Assembly: GCA_035994985.1 (NCBI GenBank)
Contig: DASYKZ010000008.1
Location: forward strand, 3,643-67,642
Source: Minisyncoccota bacterium
GTDB lineage: Bacteria > Patescibacteriota > Minisyncoccia > Phycocordibacterales > UBA9973
Direction of reading: 5' to 3'
DNA length: 64,000 bases
Below the pieces are notes generated by a model. That model made no database searches. It saw only the letters and a list, made by a program, of their open reading frames with translations, and was not told the DNA's origin. Both the position numbers and the translations under genes were made by a program. Each line of letters begins with the position of its first letter. Position 1 is the stretch's first letter. This document shows positions 20-50,730 of the stretch, one piece after another.

Positions 20-1774
20 ATGAAACATGAGATACAAAAATTAATAACAGATGCACTTCTGAACTTGAACATAGAAGTGAGTGATATCGTGGTGGAGCAT
101 CCCACAGATTTAAAAATGGGGGATTATTCCACGAATGTAGCCATGGTTATCGCTAAGAGCATAGGTCATCCGCCAGCTGGCGGACCAAAAGAGCTTGCCG
201 GAAAAATTGTCACTGAAATATTGAGGTTAAACACGGATAAAAATATAGAGCATGTCGAGGTGGCCGGCGCGGGGTTTATAAATTTCCATCTATCCCGTAA
301 TTTTTTCGCCCATAGCGTGGAAGATATTTTGAACTCCGGAGCGGATGTCGGCAAAAATGACTCCCTTTCAGGGCAAAAAATAATGGTGGAGTATACCGAC
401 CCAAATCCCTTTAAGCCGTTTCATATTGGTCATCTCATGACTAATGCTATCGGCGAATCTATTGCTGGAATTTTAGAACACTCCGGAGCTAGCGTTTCCC
501 GGGCAAACTATCAGGGCGATGTCGGCCCACACGTAGCAAAGGCAATTTATGGGCTTATGCAGGATAAAAAGTTACAAGATAAAATGAGTTCTCATGCTAA
601 CAATATTAAACAGGCTGGAAATATTGGAAAAGCTTACGTGGAAGGTTCGGAGGCTTATGAAAATGAAAATAATCCTTTGGCTAAAAAAGAAATAGATGAA
701 ATAAATACAAAAATTTACGACAAGAGCGACCCAAAAGTAAATGAAGTATACGACTGGGGTTTCAAGGTGACGATGGAAGCTTTTGAGGATTTATACAAGC
801 TGCTTGGCACAAAATTTGAATTTTACTTTTTGGAATCCATGGTGGCTATACTAGGCATAGAAGCGGTCAAAAATAATATGGGCGAAGTTTTTGAAGAGTC
901 CGACGGAGCTGTAGTTTTCAAGGCTGAAAAATACAACAAAGAAGGACAGCCGAAATTGCATACCAGAGTATTTTTAACCTCCAAAGGATTGCCTACGTAC
1001 GAGACTAAAGAATTAGGCCTTACCGAAGAAAAGTTTGCGAGGATGCCCGACATGAATCTTTCCATCGTTATTACCGCCAATGAACAGATGGATTATATGA
1101 GAGTGGTCGCCAAGGCGCTTTCGCTGATTCATCCAAAATATGAGTCAAAGATGAAACACATCACCCACGGCATGATGCGTTTGGCTGCAGGCAAGATGTC
1201 TTCCCGAAAAGGCAATGTGGTGACAGGAGAATCTTTGATTCGGGACACCATCGCTCTGGTTTCCGAGAAGCTCAAAGAGCGGGATTGGGATGAAGAGCAA
1301 AAAAATAAAGTCGCCGAAGTTGTCGGCATAGCAGCGCTAAAGTATTCAATTTTAAAACAGTCTACCGGCGGGGACATAGCCTACGATTTTGAAAAATCCA
1401 TTTCATTCGAGGGGGACTCCGGCCCATACCTTCAATATTCGTATGCTAGGGCGAATTCAGTCATAGAAAAGTCACAACGGGAAAATATCTTGCCGGACCC
1501 GCATGCTTTCGGAGAGGAAATTTTTGAGATAGAAAAATTGTTATATAAATTCCCTGAAGTCGTAGAGAGAGCATCAAGGGAATATGAGCCGCACTATATC
1601 GCGAATTATCTGATAGAAGTCGCCCGCTCTTACAACAGCTTTTACGGCAACACTATTATAGTAAACAAAGAAGATAAGACTTCGGGATATAAAATTGCCC
1701 TTACCTATTCATTTTCTTTCGTCATGAAAACGGGCCTGCATCTCCTCGGCATCCAGGCTCCAACAAAGATGTAG
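20..1774 (+). CDS. argS: arginine--tRNA ligase
   Basis: 584 aa; N-terminal ArgRS anticodon/Add-1 like region, class I HIGH-like PFHIGH, KMSSRKG (KMSKS-like), C-terminal DALR-type region. Confidence 0.9.
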   Translation: MKHEIQKLITDALLNLNIEVSDIVVEHPTDLKMGDYSTNVAMVIAKSIGHPPAGGPKELAGKIVTEILRLNTDKNIEHVEVAGAGFINFHLSRNFFAHSVEDILNSGADVGKNDSLSGQKIMVEYTDPNPFKPFHIGHLMTNAIGESIAGILEHSGASVSRANYQGDVGPHVAKAIYGLMQDKKLQDKMSSHANNIKQAGNIGKAYVEGSEAYENENNPLAKKEIDEINTKIYDKSDPKVNEVYDWGFKVTMEAFEDLYKLLGTKFEFYFLESMVAILGIEAVKNNMGEVFEESDGAVVFKAEKYNKEGQPKLHTRVFLTSKGLPTYETKELGLTEEKFARMPDMNLSIVITANEQMDYMRVVAKALSLIHPKYESKMKHITHGMMRLAAGKMSSRKGNVVTGESLIRDTIALVSEKLKERDWDEEQKNKVAEVVGIAALKYSILKQSTGGDIAYDFEKSISFEGDSGPYLQYSYARANSVIEKSQRENILPDPHAFGEEIFEIEKLLYKFPEVVERASREYEPHYIANYLIEVARSYNSFYGNTIIVNKEDKTSGYKIALTYSFSFVMKTGLHLLGIQAPTKM

Positions 1775-40558: not shown

Positions 40559-40659
40559 TTGACATCTTTTTGGCTTTAGTATAGTATCAACCTATCAGTA
40601 TGAATATTACAAGAAACAGTTTAAAAGGGCGGTCTCGGTAGACTATTTCTTTTGTCTGC

Positions 40660-40690: not shown

Positions 40691-41393
40691 AAATCAGCAC
40701 GGTTTGAAAATTGAAAACTTAATTCTTGCCCTATTTCTTTTCCCGTTCGCGGGATTGGGTCTTTTTAGAGGCAAGAAAAATTCGTTTACATGGTTATCCG
40801 AGCGGTCGGAAATTATAATTATGTAAAAGGATTCTTGCCCGCCTTTGGCGGGTGAATTTTTCCACTGAAAAGGTGGAATTGTGATTTTCAAATTTCTTAA
40901 CAGGAAATTTAAGGGCGTACGGTGGATGCCTTGACTGTAAGAGGCGATGAAGGACGTAGCAAAGCTGCGATAAGCTTCGGGGAGGTGCCTAGCAACCTTT
41001 GATCCGGAGATTTCCGAATGGGGAAACCCTGCATAGTAAACCTATGTAACTTTTATCTTTATGATAATAAGAGCGTACCCTGGGAAGTGAAACATCTCAG
41101 TACCAGGAGGAGTAGAGAACAATAGTTATTTTCTTAGTAGCGGCGAGCGAAAAGGAAGAAGCCCAAACCGATGTAGCAATATATCGGGGTTGTAAGATGA
41201 CAATGTAGATTTCTAGAAGAGTCAAAAAATACATAATTAGTTGAAGTTGCTGGAAAGCGACACCATAGGGGGTGATAGTCCCGTAAGCGAAAATTATGTG
41301 TCTCTTTTATTGTTATTCTTGAGTACCCCAGGACATGAATGGCCGGGGGGAATCCAGCGGAACTAACCGCTAAGGCTAAATACTCTTACAGAT

Positions 41394-41430
<37 letters not shown>

Positions 41431-42165
41431 CAGCCCGATTAGGGCGGTGAAATAGACCTGAAACCGTATGTCTACAAGGAGTCGATGCACTGCTTCGGCG
41501 GTGCTACGGCGTGCCTATTGAAGAATGAGCCAACGAGTTTATTCATACTGCAAGGCTAAGTGGGCTAAAACCACAGAGCCAAAGGGAAACCGAGTGTTAA
41601 TAGCGCGACTTTAGTAGTATGCATAAGACCCGAAGCCAGGTGAGCTTGCCATGAGCAGGTTGAAGTTCGCAGAAATGCGGATGGAGGACCGAACCGGTAG
41701 ATCGTACAACGTCTTCGGATGACTTGTGGTAAGGAGTGAAAAGCTAATCGAACCTGGTAATAGCTGGTTCTCTCCGAAATAGCTTTAGGGCTAGCGTCGT
41801 GTGTTTTTTCTGGGGGTAGAGCACTGGAAGATTTCGACAGGGAGCAATCTCGCGAAACCTATCAAACTCCGAATACCAGAAACCATAGCACGGCAGTTAG
41901 GCCATGGGGGCGAAGCTCCATTGGCCAAAAGGGAAACAGCCCAGATCTCAAAATAAGGTCCCTAAATATATACTAAGTGTAAGACAAGAAGGTGAGATTT
42001 CTTAAACAATGAGGAGGTTGGCTTAGAAGCAGCCATCCTTTAAAGATAGCGTAACAGCTCACTCATCTAGAGATTTTGCGTCGAAAATAATTGGGGCTAA
42101 GTATATTACCGAATTTGAGGATTCGTAGACTTCATCAAGAAAAAATTGTTCTTTTGTTTTAATGT

Positions 42166-42241
42166 GGGGGCGTAGCTCAGATGGTAGAGCACTTCGCTGG
42201 CAGCGAAGGGGTCGGGAGTTCGATGCTCCTCGCCTCCACCA
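42166..42241 (+). tRNA. tRNA-Ala (anticodon GGC), encoded inside the 23S helix-45 intervening sequence
   Basis: 76 nt cloverleaf: acceptor GGGGGCG/CGCCTCC with G3:U70, D arm GCTC-AGATGGTA-GAGC, anticodon loop CTGGCAG, T arm GGGAG-TTCGATG-CTCCT, encoded CCA. Confidence 0.8.
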
Positions 42242-42277
42242 CTTCATTTTTTGAAGTGAATTGTTTTGTTTTTACGT

Positions 42278-42355
42278 AGCCGCTTAGCTCAACATGGATA
42301 GAGCACTTGCCTAACAAGCAAGGGGTTACGGGTTCGAGCCCCGTAGCGGCCACCA
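42278..42355 (+). tRNA. tRNA-like gene, formally Val (anticodon AAC), atypical (A1:C72 mismatch, A34)
   Basis: D arm GCTC-AACATGGATA-GAGC, anticodon stem CTTGC/GCAAG loop CTAACAA, T arm ACGGG-TTCGAGC-CCCGT, 3' ACCA; may be a tRNA mimic rather than a decoding tRNA. Confidence 0.45.
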
Positions 42356-43170
42356 CCTTACTTTTTGTAAGGTAACAAATATTTTTTCCCAAGGAATTTT
42401 CTTTCGAGAACTTTCTTTGGGTTCTTGATGAAGTCTACGAGTGGTAGGAGAGTGTTCCACTCTGCTGTGAAGGAAGACTCGTGAGAGCTTCTGGAGCGTG
42501 TGGAAGTAAGAATGTTGGCACAAGTAACCGCAATGATGTTGAGAACGCATCACGTCGAAAGATCAAGGTTTCCTTGGTAATGATAATCAGCCAAGGGTTA
42601 GTCGGGCCTAAGGGAATGGTGAAAACCGTACTCGATGGACACAGGGTTAATATTCCCTGACTTCTGTATATAGTGATGGGATGACGGAGGGTAGTATGTA
42701 TCGCTCATTATTGGATTTGAAGTTTATGCCTTAATTGTACGCTATAGGAAAATCCGTAGCGTGACTTAAATGTCATATGAAAGAGGAGTAAAAAGTTTTC
42801 CGTTCGCGGAGGGCAATGATACAAAGCACGCTTCCAAGAAAACTCTCTAAACTTATATATATAGAATCCGTACCGCAAACCGACACAGGTGATCAGGTCG
42901 AGTAGACCAAGACGAACGAGTGAGTGGTCCCCAAGGAACTCGGCAAAAAAGCAGCCGTAACTTCGGGATAAGGCTTGCCCCTCTTTATTGAGGGGCCGCA
43001 GCGAAAGTATCTCTGGCAACTGTTTACCAAAAACACAGCTCCCTGCGAACTCGTAAGAGGATGTATAGGGGGTGACACCTGACCAATGCCAGAAGGTCAA
43101 ATATCGGCGTTTCTAATAGCAATATTATTGGTGACTGATATAAGCCCTGGTGAATGTCGGCCGTAACTAT

Positions 43171-43494
43171 AGACAAAACCGTTGTAGTTACGCAAATAAA
43201 TCTTGCTATATGCTGGAAAACCCGTGTATCTTCAAATACTCATTCAAGGAAACTTGAGTAGTGAAAATTTTGAAGCGTTGCCTAAATCTTAATTGATCGG
43301 TTAACGGATAATCAGCAGGCAACCTGCGCAAGCAGAGAGTCCTCAGAGACTATACGCAAGACAATTTCAAATCAATAATTGGAGTCGACGATTTGAAAAT
43401 GATGATATAGTCCGACCTCTATGGCGACATAGAGCTAACACGTTTTAGTTTTTGTTTGGTAAACAATAGATTACATATTCAACCTTAAGAAAAG
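43171..43494 (+). mobile_element. group I intron in 23S (site equivalent to E. coli ~1917), ORF-less
   Basis: splits conserved GGCCGTAACTAT | AACGGTCCTAAGG; IGS ccgttGTAGTT near 5' end pairs with 5' exon AACTAT (P1, U.G) and 3' exon AACGG (P10); P7 halves cagAGACTAta / gaTATAGTCcgacc (cf. Tetrahymena GAUAUAGUCGGACC); ends in G. Confidence 0.75.
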
Positions 43495-44171
43495 AACGGT
43501 CCTAAGGTAGCGAAATACCTTGTCGGGTAAGTTCCGACGCGCACGAATGGTGTAATGACTGGAGAACTGTCTCGGGGACCAGCTCGGTGAAAATACAATA
43601 CCGGTGAAGATGCCGGTTAAGTGCAGTTAGACGAAAAGACCCTAGAAGCTTTACTATAACTTGATATTGAGTATGTTTTTAGACTGCGTAGCATAGATGG
43701 GAGAGGTTTGATGGATAAGGTTTCGGCTTTGTTCTACTCGTCAGTGAAATACCATTCTTTTTGAAGGCATATTCTAACCAATGCGGCAAAAACGCATTGA
43801 GACAGTATCTGGTGGATAGTTTTACTGGGGCTGTACCCTCCTAAAAAGTAAAGGAGGGGTTTAAAGGTAATCTAGGCGCGAATGGAAACCGTGCCGATAG
43901 TGTAATAGCACAAGATTGCTTGACTGTGAGAGGTACATCTCGAGCAGGTGGGAAACCAGAATATAGTGAACCGACCACCCGTATTAGACGCGGTGGAAGA
44001 TTAACGGATAAAAGCTACTCTAGGGATAACAGGCTAGTTCCGCCCAAGAGTTCATATCGACGGCGGAGTTCGGCACCTCGATGTCGGCTCACCTTAGCGC
44101 GGTGGCGGAGAAGCTACCAAGCGTTTGGCTGTTCGCCAATTAAAAAGGTACGCGAGCTGGGTTCAGACCGT

Positions 44172-44555
44172 TTTGAAAATACAGGCACTAGGCTTTAGGC
44201 GCTAGGCATTAGCATTAGATTTTGCTAGAGCCTAAAGCCTAAATTTCCTAAAGCCTTGTTTTCGGGACAGTCTGAACCCTCAGAGGAAATAAGAGCTCAA
44301 ATGAACTTATACTGTTTTAATCGAAGACAACCAAGTGTATTAAATTACACACCACGGCGGTTCTAAATTTTATTTAGGAAGAAGTCGGGGTTTTCGGTGA
44401 AATCCAATCCTGAGATTTATCGAAGGAGGACAACACCGAGTGCCGTAAAGGCATGTAGAGACTACAAACCGACCACGAGAAATTGTGAATGTATAGTCCA
44501 ATCCCTTTAGTAATAAAGGTTCCGCGCTTGTAGAGCGCGGAAGTAAAATAAAATG
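44172..44555 (+). mobile_element. group I intron in 23S (site equivalent to E. coli ~2593), ORF-less
   Basis: splits conserved GGGTTCAGACCGT | CGTGAGACAGGTTGGTC; P7-like tAGAGACTAcaaa / tgTATAGTCc; ends in G; boundaries +/- few nt. Confidence 0.6.
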
Positions 44556-44989
44556 CGTGAGACAGGTTGGTCTCCTATCTACTGCACTCGTTGATTCTTG
44601 AGAAGATTTGCCCCTAGTACGAGAGGACCGGGGTGAACTGACCTCTGGTGTACGAGCTGTCCTGCCAAGGGCACTGCTCGGTAGCTATGTCGGGAATGGA
44701 TAACCTCTGAAAGCATCTAAGAGGGAAGCCAGCTTCAAGATTAGGAATCGTTAAGAACCCTGAGAGATGATCAGGTTGATAGGCTTTAAGTGTAAGCGCA
44801 GTAATGCGTTCAGCTGAGAAGTACTAATGTTTCGATTCCTGTTAAGAAATTTGGAAATCACACCCCGCACATAACTTACTAAATAATCTAAAAAAATTAA
44901 GTGAATTTTATCTCATGGAATATTCATTTAAAGAAAAAGGTTGTTTGTTAAGTTATGTGCGGGGACCAAAAAATATTCGCTTCGAATAT

Positions 44990-45104
44990 AATGTTCTGGT
45001 GCTTAAACGGCGGAGTCACATCTCTTCCCATTTCGAACAGAGCAATTAAGCCCGCTAGTGCCGATGATACTTGTAAAGGAAAAGTAGGTAGGTGCCAGAA
45101 CAGT
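44990..45104 (+). rRNA. rrf: 5S ribosomal RNA
   Basis: TTCTGGTGC...CCCATTTCGAACAGAG...GCCGATGATACTTG...GGTGCCAGAA aligns with 5S helices I-V; preceded by 18-bp spacer stem ccccgcacataacttac / gtaagttatgtgcgggg (44863-44966). Confidence 0.8.
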
Positions 45105-45158
45105 GTATTTGAAGACTAAAAAGCCAGTAGATATCTGATGGTTTTTTGGTATACTTAA

Positions 45159-45518
45159 ATGATTATGATTAATGGCGATTATTTTTTTGTGATTGTTTTA
45201 GGGGTTGTTGCAGGTACTCGGCTTTTTCTTTTAGCAAACATACCTAGCCCAACTATTAAAGGTTTTCGGACTCGTCATTATATGACTGGGATGGTCTTAA
45301 TTATTTTATCTTTTTTAAGCAATAATCTGGTAATTTTTGCTGTAGGTTACGCTTTCATTATAGATGAATTACCTTTAATTATCGCCAGAGGTCCGGGGCA
45401 TAAAGAACAATACTGGAAACCAGGAGAAGATTATTGGTCTCGTTGGTGTATTGTAGGAGTATTGATTTTAATCTTTTTAACTTATGTTTTTAGGGGCGTC
45501 ATCGCAGGATTAATATAA
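45159..45518 (+). CDS. small membrane protein, unknown function
   Basis: 119 aa, 3-4 TM helices, between 5S rRNA and rpsS. Confidence 0.35.
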   Translation: MIMINGDYFFVIVLGVVAGTRLFLLANIPSPTIKGFRTRHYMTGMVLIILSFLSNNLVIFAVGYAFIIDELPLIIARGPGHKEQYWKPGEDYWSRWCIVGVLILIFLTYVFRGVIAGLI

Positions 45519-45617
45519 CTAAGGATATTATAGGTTTTATTTGACATTTTACCCCAATTTGCTATTATGAAGCCAAGCTCTGTGAGAGCTTTTTTAAATG
45601 AACATACAGTAAAAATC

Positions 45618-45965
45618 ATGACAAGATCAATCAAAAAAGGTCTATATGTGGACGAAAAACTGCTTTCAAAAATCGCAGGCAAAAACCCGCTCAATACCCC
45701 CATGATAAAGACATGGAAGAGGGCTTCCACCATATCTCCGGAAATGCTTGGTTTCGTCTTTGGCGTGCATAATGGCAAGACTCATGTGGAGGTATTGGTT
45801 ACCGAAGACATGGTGGGCCACAAACTCGGCGAATTTTCACCAACAAAGAAATTCATGAAGCACGGAGGAAAAATGCAGAAAGAGCTTGAAGCAAAGAAGA
45901 AAGAGTCTGAAATAGCGGCAGCCAAGTCTGCCACAGCGGCCGCAGCCGATGCAAAGAAAAAATAG
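45618..45965 (+). CDS. rpsS: 30S ribosomal protein S19 (Lys/Ala-rich C-terminal extension)
   Basis: [15 protein letters not shown]...[29 protein letters not shown]; start chosen at MTRSIKKG. Confidence 0.85.
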
Positions 45966-49477: not shown

Positions 49478-49969
49478 ATGAACGATGTAAATCATGAAAA
49501 AATAGAAAATTTAGCATTGAGTATATTAGATAGTTATAATATTACAGAACCAGTAGTTGATGTTACCAAGATAGCTAAAGATAAAGGAATAGAAATTAAG
49601 GAGATATCAATGCCTACGGGATATAACGAGGTTGCTGGTTTCTATGACAAAGATCAAAAAACTATTTATATTGAAGCTAGCGACAAACCATCTCGAAAAT
49701 TGTTTACCATTGCACATGAATTGGGCCATATTTTTTTGGAGCATACAAATTATGGTGTTCTTTTTCGAATTCCTAAAAAGGATGCAAATTACATAAAAGA
49801 GGAAAAAGAAGCTAATAGTTTTGCAGCTAATTTATTAATGCCAGTAAACATGGTATTTGATTATATGGAAAAATATAATCTTTCTCATTCGGACTACAAA
49901 AAAATGTCCGATATATTTGGTGTTCCTATAGTTGCTATGAAAATGCGACTAGAAGACCATCTTAAATAA
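49478..49969 (+). CDS. ImmA/IrrE-family (DUF955) zinc metallopeptidase
   Basis: HELGHIFLEH (HExxH) with downstream conserved Asn/Glu region; AT-rich gene inserted between rplE and rpsN. Confidence 0.6.
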   Translation: MNDVNHEKIENLALSILDSYNITEPVVDVTKIAKDKGIEIKEISMPTGYNEVAGFYDKDQKTIYIEASDKPSRKLFTIAHELGHIFLEHTNYGVLFRIPKKDANYIKEEKEANSFAANLLMPVNMVFDYMEKYNLSHSDYKKMSDIFGVPIVAMKMRLEDHLK

Positions 49970-49970
49970 T

Positions 49971-50339
49971 ATGGATGAAGTAGAAATAAAACCAGAAGAT
50001 ATTGTTTCCAAGTTGAGTAATTCTGGTAGTGACGTAGATGAGAGTACTTTCTATTGGTTCGATAAGTTACAACAAGAAAAAAAGGAAACAGAAACAACAG
50101 AAAAAAAGGAAAATGAAGGTATTCTGGGCATGAGGAAAGTGTGGTCTCGCACAGTTCTTTGTCTAATTGTAGCGATAGTTATTTTTGATATGGTGCTTGT
50201 TATTTTGTATGGGTTGGGAAAGTTAGATTTCCAAGACTCAAATGTTGTAATTGTTATTATAACTGATAATTTTCTAAAGATTTTTGGTTTAGGATATTTA
50301 ATTACTAGAGAAATTTTCAAGAAAATCTACCATAGATAG
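49971..50339 (+). CDS. hypothetical protein with acidic/Lys-rich N-terminus and one TM helix
   Basis: 122 aa, translationally coupled to ImmA-like gene (stop/start overlap). Confidence 0.35.
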   Translation: MDEVEIKPEDIVSKLSNSGSDVDESTFYWFDKLQQEKKETETTEKKENEGILGMRKVWSRTVLCLIVAIVIFDMVLVILYGLGKLDFQDSNVVIVIITDNFLKIFGLGYLITREIFKKIYHR

Positions 50340-50544: not shown

Positions 50545-50730
50545 ATGGCAAAAACATCCGTTATAGCGCGAAGCAAAAAGACACCAAAGTTCAGCACCCG
50601 GCAAAAAAACCGATGTTTTCGCTGCGGCCGGGGCAAGGCTTTCATGAGGGATTTCGGCCTATGCCGTATTTGTTTCAGGGAATTAGCAAATGAAGGAATG
50701 TTGCCAGGGGTTCGCAAATCGAGCTGGTAG
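50545..50730 (+). CDS. rpsN: 30S ribosomal protein S14 type Z (zinc-binding)
   Basis: 61 aa, CFRCGRGKA...CRICFRE. Confidence 0.85.

Follow-up and report, generated by a model that had tools for sequence, protein, structure and literature searches.

The 64,000-nt stretch analysed here, called the window below (contig DASYKZ010000008.1, positions 3,643 to 67,642 of the forward strand, Minisyncoccota bacterium, assembly GCA_035994985.1), contains a 23S rRNA gene that carries an insert with two tRNA genes in helix 45. The host gene lies on the plus strand at 40898..44846 (Rfam RF02541, 2301 bits, model positions 1-2925). It is 3949 nt long compared with the 2925 positions of the Rfam bacterial large subunit (LSU) model, meaning that it holds ~1 kb of insertions. 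When 41950-42620 was aligned to this model, ~300 nt remained unaligned in the loop of a hairpin at model positions 1206-1226. This hairpin is helix 45, and the insert replaces its loop. The conserved flanks of the unaligned block are ...GGGGCU-AAG......ACCGAA on the 5' side and GGUAGGAGAG on the 3' side. The LSU alignment, ARAGORN and Rfam agreed on a helix-45 insert with two tRNA genes, as had been proposed in the initial annotation of the window.

The insert is closed by a stem of 21 contiguous pairs, 42121-42141 with 42422-42442, as determined from the fold and from the helix-length table of all loci. The initial annotation had given 16-17 bp, which is too short. The 5' arm (ATTCGTAGACTTCATCAAGAA, 42121..42141, plus strand) was placed by the fold, helix length, covariation and comparison with the closest relative, locus L081; the 3' arm (TTCTTGATGAAGTCTACGAGT, 42422..42442, plus strand) was placed by the LSU alignment, fold, helix length and covariation. 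The first 7 nt of the 5' arm (42121-42127) are native helix 45 and are also present in L081, where the insert is missing. Beyond the stem, 23S sequence continues from 42443 with GGTAGGAGAG. The inserted element proper, which is absent in L081, comprises 308 nt (42128..42435, plus strand), and its ends form a 14-bp inverted repeat, GACTTCATCAAGAA / TTCTTGATGAAGTC.

Inside the stem, the element consists of two units, each composed of a U-rich leader, a tRNA module with encoded CCA and a small hairpin, and these are followed by a terminal hairpin (all on the plus strand). The first leader (42142..42165) is A-rich and then U-rich, and a motif scan located TTGTTCTTT in it at 42146-42154. The leader of unit 2 (AATTGTTTTGTTTTTACGT, 42259..42277) is similar in sequence. 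The fold placed a 7-bp A/U-rich hairpin with a U-rich loop at 42240..42258, overlapping the CA of the CCA end of the first tRNA, and a second 7-bp hairpin with a U5 loop at 42355..42373, beginning at the last A of the CCA of unit 2. Small GC hairpins with U-rich loops had been described after the tRNAs: the hairpins and their loops of five to six U were found, and the stems turned out to be A/U-rich, 7 bp long and overlapping the CCA. The terminal hairpin, CCCAAGGAA...UUCUUUGGG (42388..42421), lies directly 5' of the 3' arm and is an addition to those described before. Loci L064 and L027 have an equivalent hairpin of different sequence 3' of the module, and the counterpart of the terminal hairpin in L064 is CCCAAGCGGG...GTTTGGG. 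The fold of 42116-42448 (-132.6 kcal/mol, z = -7.9) consists of the basal stem, two cloverleaves and three hairpins, and none of 100 shuffled sequences folded as well.

A consensus scan of the insert found no promoter, and its single terminator-like call, a weak one, was the hairpin at 42240-42258. No open reading frame (ORF) of 80 aa or more was found within the insert, and Rfam found no tmRNA there. A group I intron or homing-endonuclease insert at helix 45 was rejected, as 41950-42620 gave no RF00028 match at the gathering score. An assembly chimera was ruled out by an identical contig from the Joint Genome Institute (JGI) metagenomes (L025) and by the same architecture in dozens of independent assemblies.

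The first module is a tRNA-Ala(GGC) of 76 nt (42166..42241, on the rRNA strand, plus). ARAGORN and Rfam (59.5 bits) returned the coordinates given in the initial annotation, and R1, a covariance model built from 50 ARAGORN-called modules of this family, scored it with 77 bits. It has the G3:U70 pair and the encoded CCA that had been described and also A73, a 7-nt anticodon loop CUGGCAG (U33, A37), G18G19, a TTCGA T-loop and the pair G15:C48. The second module, previously read as a 78-nt cloverleaf with anticodon AAC and an A1-C72 mismatch, was called as tRNA-Val(AAC) at the same place (42278..42355, on the rRNA strand, plus; ARAGORN; Rfam 59.4 bits; R1 73.3 bits). It has A34, A73, an encoded CCA, the pair A15:U48, the loop CUAACAA and a TTCGA T-loop. 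The gathering score of the Rfam tRNA family (RF00005) is 29, and both modules reached E ~1e-10. Chance tRNA-like folds were ruled out by these E-values, by the agreement with ARAGORN and by R1. Both modules have a 7-nt anticodon loop, U33, a purine at 37, U8, A14, G18G19, T54-C56 and the 15:48 pair. According to ARAGORN and Rfam, they are the only tRNAs in the whole window.

By the bacterial identity rules as we take them to be, G3:U70 and A73 agree with the Ala anticodon GGC in unit 1. For unit 2, we likewise take A73, A35 and C36 to fit Val, and A34 and A1-C72 to be abnormal for a bacterial tRNA. Compared with a canonical Val(GAC), unit 2 has two G-to-A changes, at positions 1 and 34, and the second module of the relative L004 is a Val(GAC). 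The two G-to-A changes, which gave A1 and A34, make a decaying tRNA-Val(GAC) the most likely reading of unit 2, and a working tRNA-Ala(GGC) is the most likely reading of unit 1. Loci L049 and L007 have modules with the acceptor stem (GGGGGCG/CGCCTCC), D-stem and variable loop of unit 1; these homologous modules no longer have the GG of the D-loop or the TTC of the T-loop, and a stub stands where the anticodon arm would be. The 23S genes of L049 and L007 are apparently far more diverged than those of the close relatives, as the 40 loci most similar to the window flanks include neither. The Ala-type module appears to be old. We read the intact copy in the window, set against the decayed copies in L049 and L007, as evidence for selection on the window copy as a tRNA.

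The element was searched for in other genomes in two scans. Scan 1 covered one genome per GTDB species and required the 23S sequence that immediately precedes helix 45 and, after a gap of 32-62 nt, the D-arm motif TAGCTCA; it returned 24 loci. Scan 2 used the same pattern with a gap of 40-70 nt on JGI metagenomes and returned 52 further loci. In nearly all loci of the two scans, 23S sequence runs on both sides of the insert. In L004, L027, L078, L016, L001, L017 and L036, Rfam LSU matches span nested Rfam tRNA matches. Full-length R1 matches lie within the helix-45 insert at 68 loci, corresponding to 56 of the 61 distinct inserts: one module in 45, two in 9 and three in 2. With these one to three modules, the internal content of the inserts ranges from 130 to 600 nt. 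The initial annotation had proposed a check of homologous 23S genes for the insertion: at least 68 loci have the same design, and the closest relative, L081, has a plain helix 45. As the scans demanded a tRNA-like motif, these counts are a number of cases and not a share of genomes. The hosts mostly belong to the Candidate Phyla Radiation (CPR): Paceibacteria/Parcubacteria, Nomurabacteria, Kaiserbacteria, Yanofskybacteria and Saccharibacteria. Three loci with the same conserved stem and tRNA-like modules (L018, L019 and L022) carry the bin labels Gammaproteobacteria, Bdellovibrionales and 'proteobacterium'; they may be mis-binned CPR contigs or may point to a wider distribution of the element. 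The scan also returned a classical element with a 27-bp stem and no tRNA in Helicobacter cholecystus (L020). In locus L073, the 23S gene is closely preceded by a tRNA-like element (1304-1377, plus strand) whose 'anticodon' loop has 6 nt, and tRNA-shaped non-decoding modules may thus exist at other rRNA processing sites, too.

The closing stem comprises 19-25 bp, usually 21, in essentially all loci. Among 42 distinct stems, 99.1% of cells were standard-paired, and both sides had changed at 20 of the 21 pairs. The covariation score was 0.672 vs. 0.271 in shuffles, and none of 500 shuffles reached 0.672; when the stem alignment was slid as a control, just 31-46% of cells paired. The two halves of the stem behave differently: the proximal 10 bp covary freely, and the distal 11 bp are conserved in sequence (TTCATWRAGGA / TCCTYWATGAA). 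The leader motif TTGTTCTTT, with up to one mismatch, precedes the first module in 18 of the 61 distinct inserts, compared with 0.56 expected from shuffles, and in L027 it is found ahead of both modules. The distal stem (42132-42141 / 42422-42431 in the window) and the leader motif are thus kept in sequence across very divergent CPR lineages, beyond what pairing would require, and a nuclease or another protein may recognise them.

The cloverleaf is kept across the loci as well. In the model-fitted alignment, 97.2% of cells pair, with a covariation of 0.886 vs. 0.203. RNAalifold recovered the cloverleaf independently, with compensatory change at 19 of 21 pairs. The tertiary 15:48 pair alternates between G:C and A:U, degenerate modules included. 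All these values are subject to a detection bias, as ARAGORN and R1 recover tRNA-like sequences only. The called 'identities' cover most amino acids and include A34 anticodons (AAC in the window, ATC and ACC) and stop anticodons (TCA and CTA). There are modules of the Tyr, Ser and Leu type without the long variable arm, and some loops have 6 or 8 nt or no U33.

In other modules, the anticodon presumably corresponds to the rest of the molecule. The Gly(GCC) module of L004 has G1:C72, C2:G71, G3:C70 and U73, which we take to be Gly identity elements, and the Gln(CUG) module of L016 has U1:A72, G2:C71, G3:C70 and G73, which we take to be those of Gln. The Cys module of L040 (U73) and the Pro module of L070 (C1:G72 and A73) presumably match in the same manner. 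Under these rules, the pairing of anticodon and identity in some modules appears too precise for chance. This match suggests that the helix-45 site hosts genuine tRNA genes in some lineages, with tRNA-shaped relics in others. The family contains both kinds of module: some have matching identity elements, and many have destroyed anticodon arms.

A further signal is in the acceptor stem. G3:U70 was found in 14 of the 68 distinct modules, and the other six acceptor positions have one to five G:U pairs each. The carriers are the window module at 42166-42241 and L001, L007, L009, L013, L024, L027, L049, L050, L053, L058, L070, L071 and L078. They have nine different acceptor sequences, with A73 in 10 and CCA in 10. 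Only in the window module does G3:U70 occur together with an Ala anticodon and a canonical loop around it; the other 13 have no usable Ala anticodon, and G3:U70 is still present when 25-94 nt take the place of the anticodon arm or the arm is cut to a stub. The excess of G3:U70 is a possible sign of selection for recognition by alanyl-tRNA synthetase (AlaRS).

The S3 protein encoded downstream of the 23S gene is 100% identical to one assigned to Candidatus Paceibacterota, in agreement with the earlier guess of Patescibacteria. For close relatives, genomes were also sampled independently of the insert, via ribosomal protein S3. Only L081 (GCA_031425235.1) was informative: the contigs of the closest relatives L079, L080, L082, L086 and L087 break at the rRNA, and the more distant L083-L085 have an intact S10 operon with the rRNA elsewhere. 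The 23S gene of L081 is 94-98% identical to that of the window and has the same neighbours (a MscS-like gene upstream, S19 downstream). Its helix-45 region is ordinary and 35 nt long, ATTCGTA-AAAATTTATTTTTT-TACGAGT, without the insert. This comparison sets the bounds of the element at 42128-42435 and indicates that, like classical intervening sequences, the element is dispensable and occurs sporadically. Among relatives with the insert, the nearest is L064 (23S ~90%); it has the same stem, leader and hairpins with a single module, which lacks the D-loop GG, has a TGAAAAT T-loop and a 6-nt loop, and keeps ACCA. A Lys(CTT)-like module is present in L036 (23S 88-92%), a module with a 10-nt 'anticodon' loop in L017 (23S 84-97%), and Gly(GCC) and Val(GAC) modules in L004 (23S 85-95%). 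Hence, the cargo turns over fast among relatives: Ala and Val in the window, Gly and Val in L004, Lys-like in L036, and degenerate in L064 and L017.

The 23S gene as a whole is flanked by a perfect 26-bp stem, the 5' strand of which (40881..40905, plus strand) pairs with 44836-44861 according to RNAduplex of the gene flanks; by its form, it belongs with the classical processing stems of the RNase III type. At 40559-40587, ~310 nt upstream of 23S, a consensus scan found the promoter-like TTGACA-17-TAGTAT. Rfam found no SSU match, i.e. no 16S gene, within the 64-kb window; the JGI metagenome contig to which the window belongs is 116 kb long. The gene order is 23S-5S, a 119-aa ORF and then S19-L22-S3-L16...

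Several other observations concern the same gene and its surroundings. The 23S gene is also interrupted by a group I intron at 43105-43434 (Rfam RF00028, 82.5 bits), and in L081 and L004 the gene contains group I introns and a LAGLIDADG ORF at sites further downstream. A third insert, ~380 nt long and without an Rfam match, lies at about 44173-44552, in the part of the gene aligned to model positions 2548-2714; an ORF (43920-44198) overlaps its start, and BLAST gaps indicate unrelated sequence of similar size at this site in relatives. The S10 operon is broken between L2 and S19 (44995-45965), with 23S-5S directly upstream of the 119-aa ORF and S19. Relatives with S3 ≤89% identical (L083-L085) have the usual L23-L2-S19 order; those with S3 ≥90% identical have the same broken arrangement, or their contigs stop at the rRNA. 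Between L5 and S14 (49478-50339) are a Peptidase_M78 gene (ImmA/IrrE-type) and a 122-aa ORF with a hydrophobic stretch by eye; in relatives, other small genes, e.g. an N_methyl pilin-like one, occupy this spot. A zinc-type S14 (61 aa, 50545-50730) is present, though missing from the public gene list.

We consider it somewhat probable, on the whole of these observations, that the element is a helix-45 intervening sequence working as an internal transcribed spacer with a tRNA cassette. The inverted-repeat ends of the element extend helix 45 beyond its native 7-bp base to the perfect 21-bp duplex, and the element would be co-transcribed with 23S from the promoter upstream of the gene. The strongly covarying 21-bp stem and the 26-bp stem flanking 23S point to RNase III as the most likely excision enzyme, and CPR genomes retain its gene, rnc (PMC12641178). 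RNase III would cut the duplex without religation, as in classical helix-45 intervening sequences, and leave the mature 23S in two pieces held together by the ribosome, of ~1.2 kb and ~2.4 kb of gene sequence (the second shorter after intron removal). The freed RNA of ~300 nt would be a tRNA precursor, trimmed by RNase P at the 5' ends and by exonucleases at the 3' ends to CCA. The predicted products are tRNA-Ala(GGC) and a Val-like RNA. Across the CPR, the site hosts a changing tRNA cargo, of which the shape and CCA are usually kept and the anticodon is not. If RNase III does the excision, the tRNA shapes are not needed for it.

Several findings weigh against a tRNA cassette. A canonical anticodon loop is present in 29 of the 68 distinct modules, and 23 of the 52 distinct modules that ARAGORN can call have a non-canonical loop; anticodons are not conserved family-wide. 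Nor is the anticodon conserved in modules homologous to those of the window, as L049 and L007 have stubs and the close relatives differ or are degenerate. Eleven of the 68 modules reach 84-158 nt, and in those inspected the additional sequence is located in the anticodon arm. The sole module of L064 is clearly non-decoding, so that decoding is not required for a module to persist at the helix-45 site. RNase III alone leaves the sequence conservation of the distal half of the stem unexplained. The window Ala gene could be redundant with another genomic copy, and its intactness is no proof of a role in translation, as RNase P also recognises the encoded CCA and the tRNA elbow. In a competing account, the modules are processing signals. 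RNase P would cut them at the 5' side and RNase Z or another nuclease at the 3' side, opening the tip of the extended helix 45 and fragmenting 23S, and the freed RNAs, that of Ala included, would have no role in translation. A kept fold with a free anticodon region is what is found family-wide, and the shape is kept where decoding is impossible: the 23 non-canonical modules have 20.35 of 21 pairs, the TTC of the T-loop in 87%, the 15:48 pair in 83% and an encoded NCCA in 61%, and the 11 long modules match R1 end to end. The stop anticodons, the A34 anticodons, the class II identities without a long variable arm and the U-rich leader ahead of each module fit, too. We nevertheless hold this account to be unlikely, if the weightiest of those that compete. 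The perfect 21-bp duplex is already an RNase III site, and classical intervening sequences need no more. L049, L007 and L064 lack the D-loop GG and the T-loop TTC, the elbow that RNase P reads, and their inserts persist. The kept shape is open to the ascertainment bias of searches that find tRNA-like things only. Both window modules have canonical loops, and that of Ala is matched to its acceptor identity, which processing signals do not require.

The tRNAs could also be passengers in a selfish or neutral intervening sequence removed by RNase III, i.e. redundant and decaying copies with no selected function. The sporadic distribution with the closest relative free of the element, the conserved inverted repeats at its ends, the quick turnover of cargo among relatives at 85-90% 23S identity, the many degenerate modules and the two damaging G-to-A changes in unit 2 of the window are all in line with this. 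It leaves unexplained that compensatory change has preserved stems, 15:48 pair and CCA in very divergent lineages, that G3:U70 exceeds other acceptor G:U pairs in modules with nine acceptor sequences, and that the window tRNA-Ala is flawless where its L049 and L007 homologues have decayed; we find it doubtful that the modules are passengers only. That the insert is not excised at all and forms an expansion segment of the mature 23S, with tRNA-like arms on the ribosome surface, seems very improbable to us. Sequence conservation, as in the stem and some of the internal motifs, could be expected of a structural or protein-binding element, and E. coli ribosomes tolerate unprocessed intervening sequences (PMC8708148). 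Set against this are the variable internal content (130 to 600 nt, one to three modules), the absence from L081, and the encoded CCA ends and leaders, which would be useless in a permanent segment. A more speculative proposal, which we rate as improbable, starts from the G3:U70 excess: the element would be a conserved CPR device that makes alanine-accepting, often anticodon-less tRNA-like RNAs from the rRNA precursor. Linked to it is the equally improbable idea that RNase P, not RNase III, is the obligatory enzyme splitting 23S in these lineages. If alanine acceptors are indeed made, there would be selection for charging, with a possible role outside decoding (tmRNA-like, or as an aminoacyl donor for cell wall or lipids); alternatively, recognition by tRNA enzymes would couple ribosome biogenesis to the insert.

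Bacterial tRNA genes are unexpected inside an rRNA gene, and annotation pipelines and surveys of rRNA insertions seem to have overlooked them. Should the nested Ala gene be functional, the supply of this tRNA in a tiny genome would be tied stoichiometrically to 23S transcription. Censuses of CPR tRNAs may miscount, either by missing real genes or by counting non-decoders. The series from intact tRNA to tRNA-shaped relic at one fixed, highly expressed site may serve as a natural probe of what RNase P, AlaRS and CCA-related enzymes need. Split 23S rRNA is predicted in many CPR ribosomes.

The initial annotation knew of no tRNA genes nested in a 23S intervening sequence. This fits our literature searches, in which no bacterial 23S intervening sequence was described as containing tRNA genes or tRNA-like modules; the searches were incomplete and are not proof, and a prior description is possible. 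The word 'tRNA' is absent from a 2024 survey of CPR rRNA insertions (PMC11270868), which describes the non-intron inserts at the two known intervening-sequence sites only as short, unclassified and probably of the RNase III type. A 2026 paper on Patescibacteria tRNA genes makes no mention of tRNAs inside rRNA.

Helix-45 intervening sequences excised by RNase III are classical (PMC8708148; PMC2801512; PMC4990558), and sporadic presence is typical of them (PMC8708148). Those of Salmonella, Yersinia, Campylobacter, Helicobacter and Coxiella share with the present element the site, a long perfect stem formed from its own ends, the sporadic distribution and, by prediction, the fragmentation of 23S. 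Some of them carry cargo as well, such as the PF05635 / S23p ORF in Coxiella (PMC4990558). The differences are in the cargo, which here consists of tRNA genes or tRNA-shaped modules, one to three per insert, together with their leaders, CCA ends and trailing hairpins, and in the distal stem sequence, which is conserved radiation-wide; excision is a prediction in our case. The tRNA genes of rRNA operons (tRNA-Ile/tRNA-Ala in the 16S-23S spacer, and distal tRNAs) are likewise co-transcribed with rRNA, and Ala is a typical occupant. Their release follows the opening of the rRNA stems by RNase III and trimming by RNase P, and the same route is proposed here. Unlike in those operons, the spacer lies inside the 23S gene, 23S is unlinked to 16S in the window, and the occupants in many relatives are unusable as tRNAs.

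LSU rRNA genes split by tRNA genes are known from organelles, namely Tetrahymena pyriformis mitochondria (Heinonen et al. 1987, as cited in PMC2996981), and tRNA processing can define rRNA ends (PMC2996981). In the split LSU genes of Tetrahymena pyriformis and oyster mitochondria, as in the mitochondrial tRNA punctuation model, the pieces are separated by tRNA genes as they are here. Those genes are often rearranged, with other break points and no closing stem, whereas the order here is colinear and the lineage a free bacterial one. The tRNA-like domain of tmRNA is another anticodon-less fold with G3:U70, A73 and CCA, and it is charged by AlaRS; unlike tmRNA, the present element has no mRNA-like part, and charging of its modules is hypothetical. 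MALAT1 mascRNA and the t-elements of plant mitochondria are tRNA-shaped, non-decoding, located within a longer transcript and recognised by RNase P/Z. They resemble the modules without a usable anticodon in many relatives. They differ in being eukaryotic or organellar and outside rRNA, and at least one window module looks like a real tRNA. What appears to be new here is the combination of an intervening sequence with spacer tRNAs, widespread and apparently overlooked.

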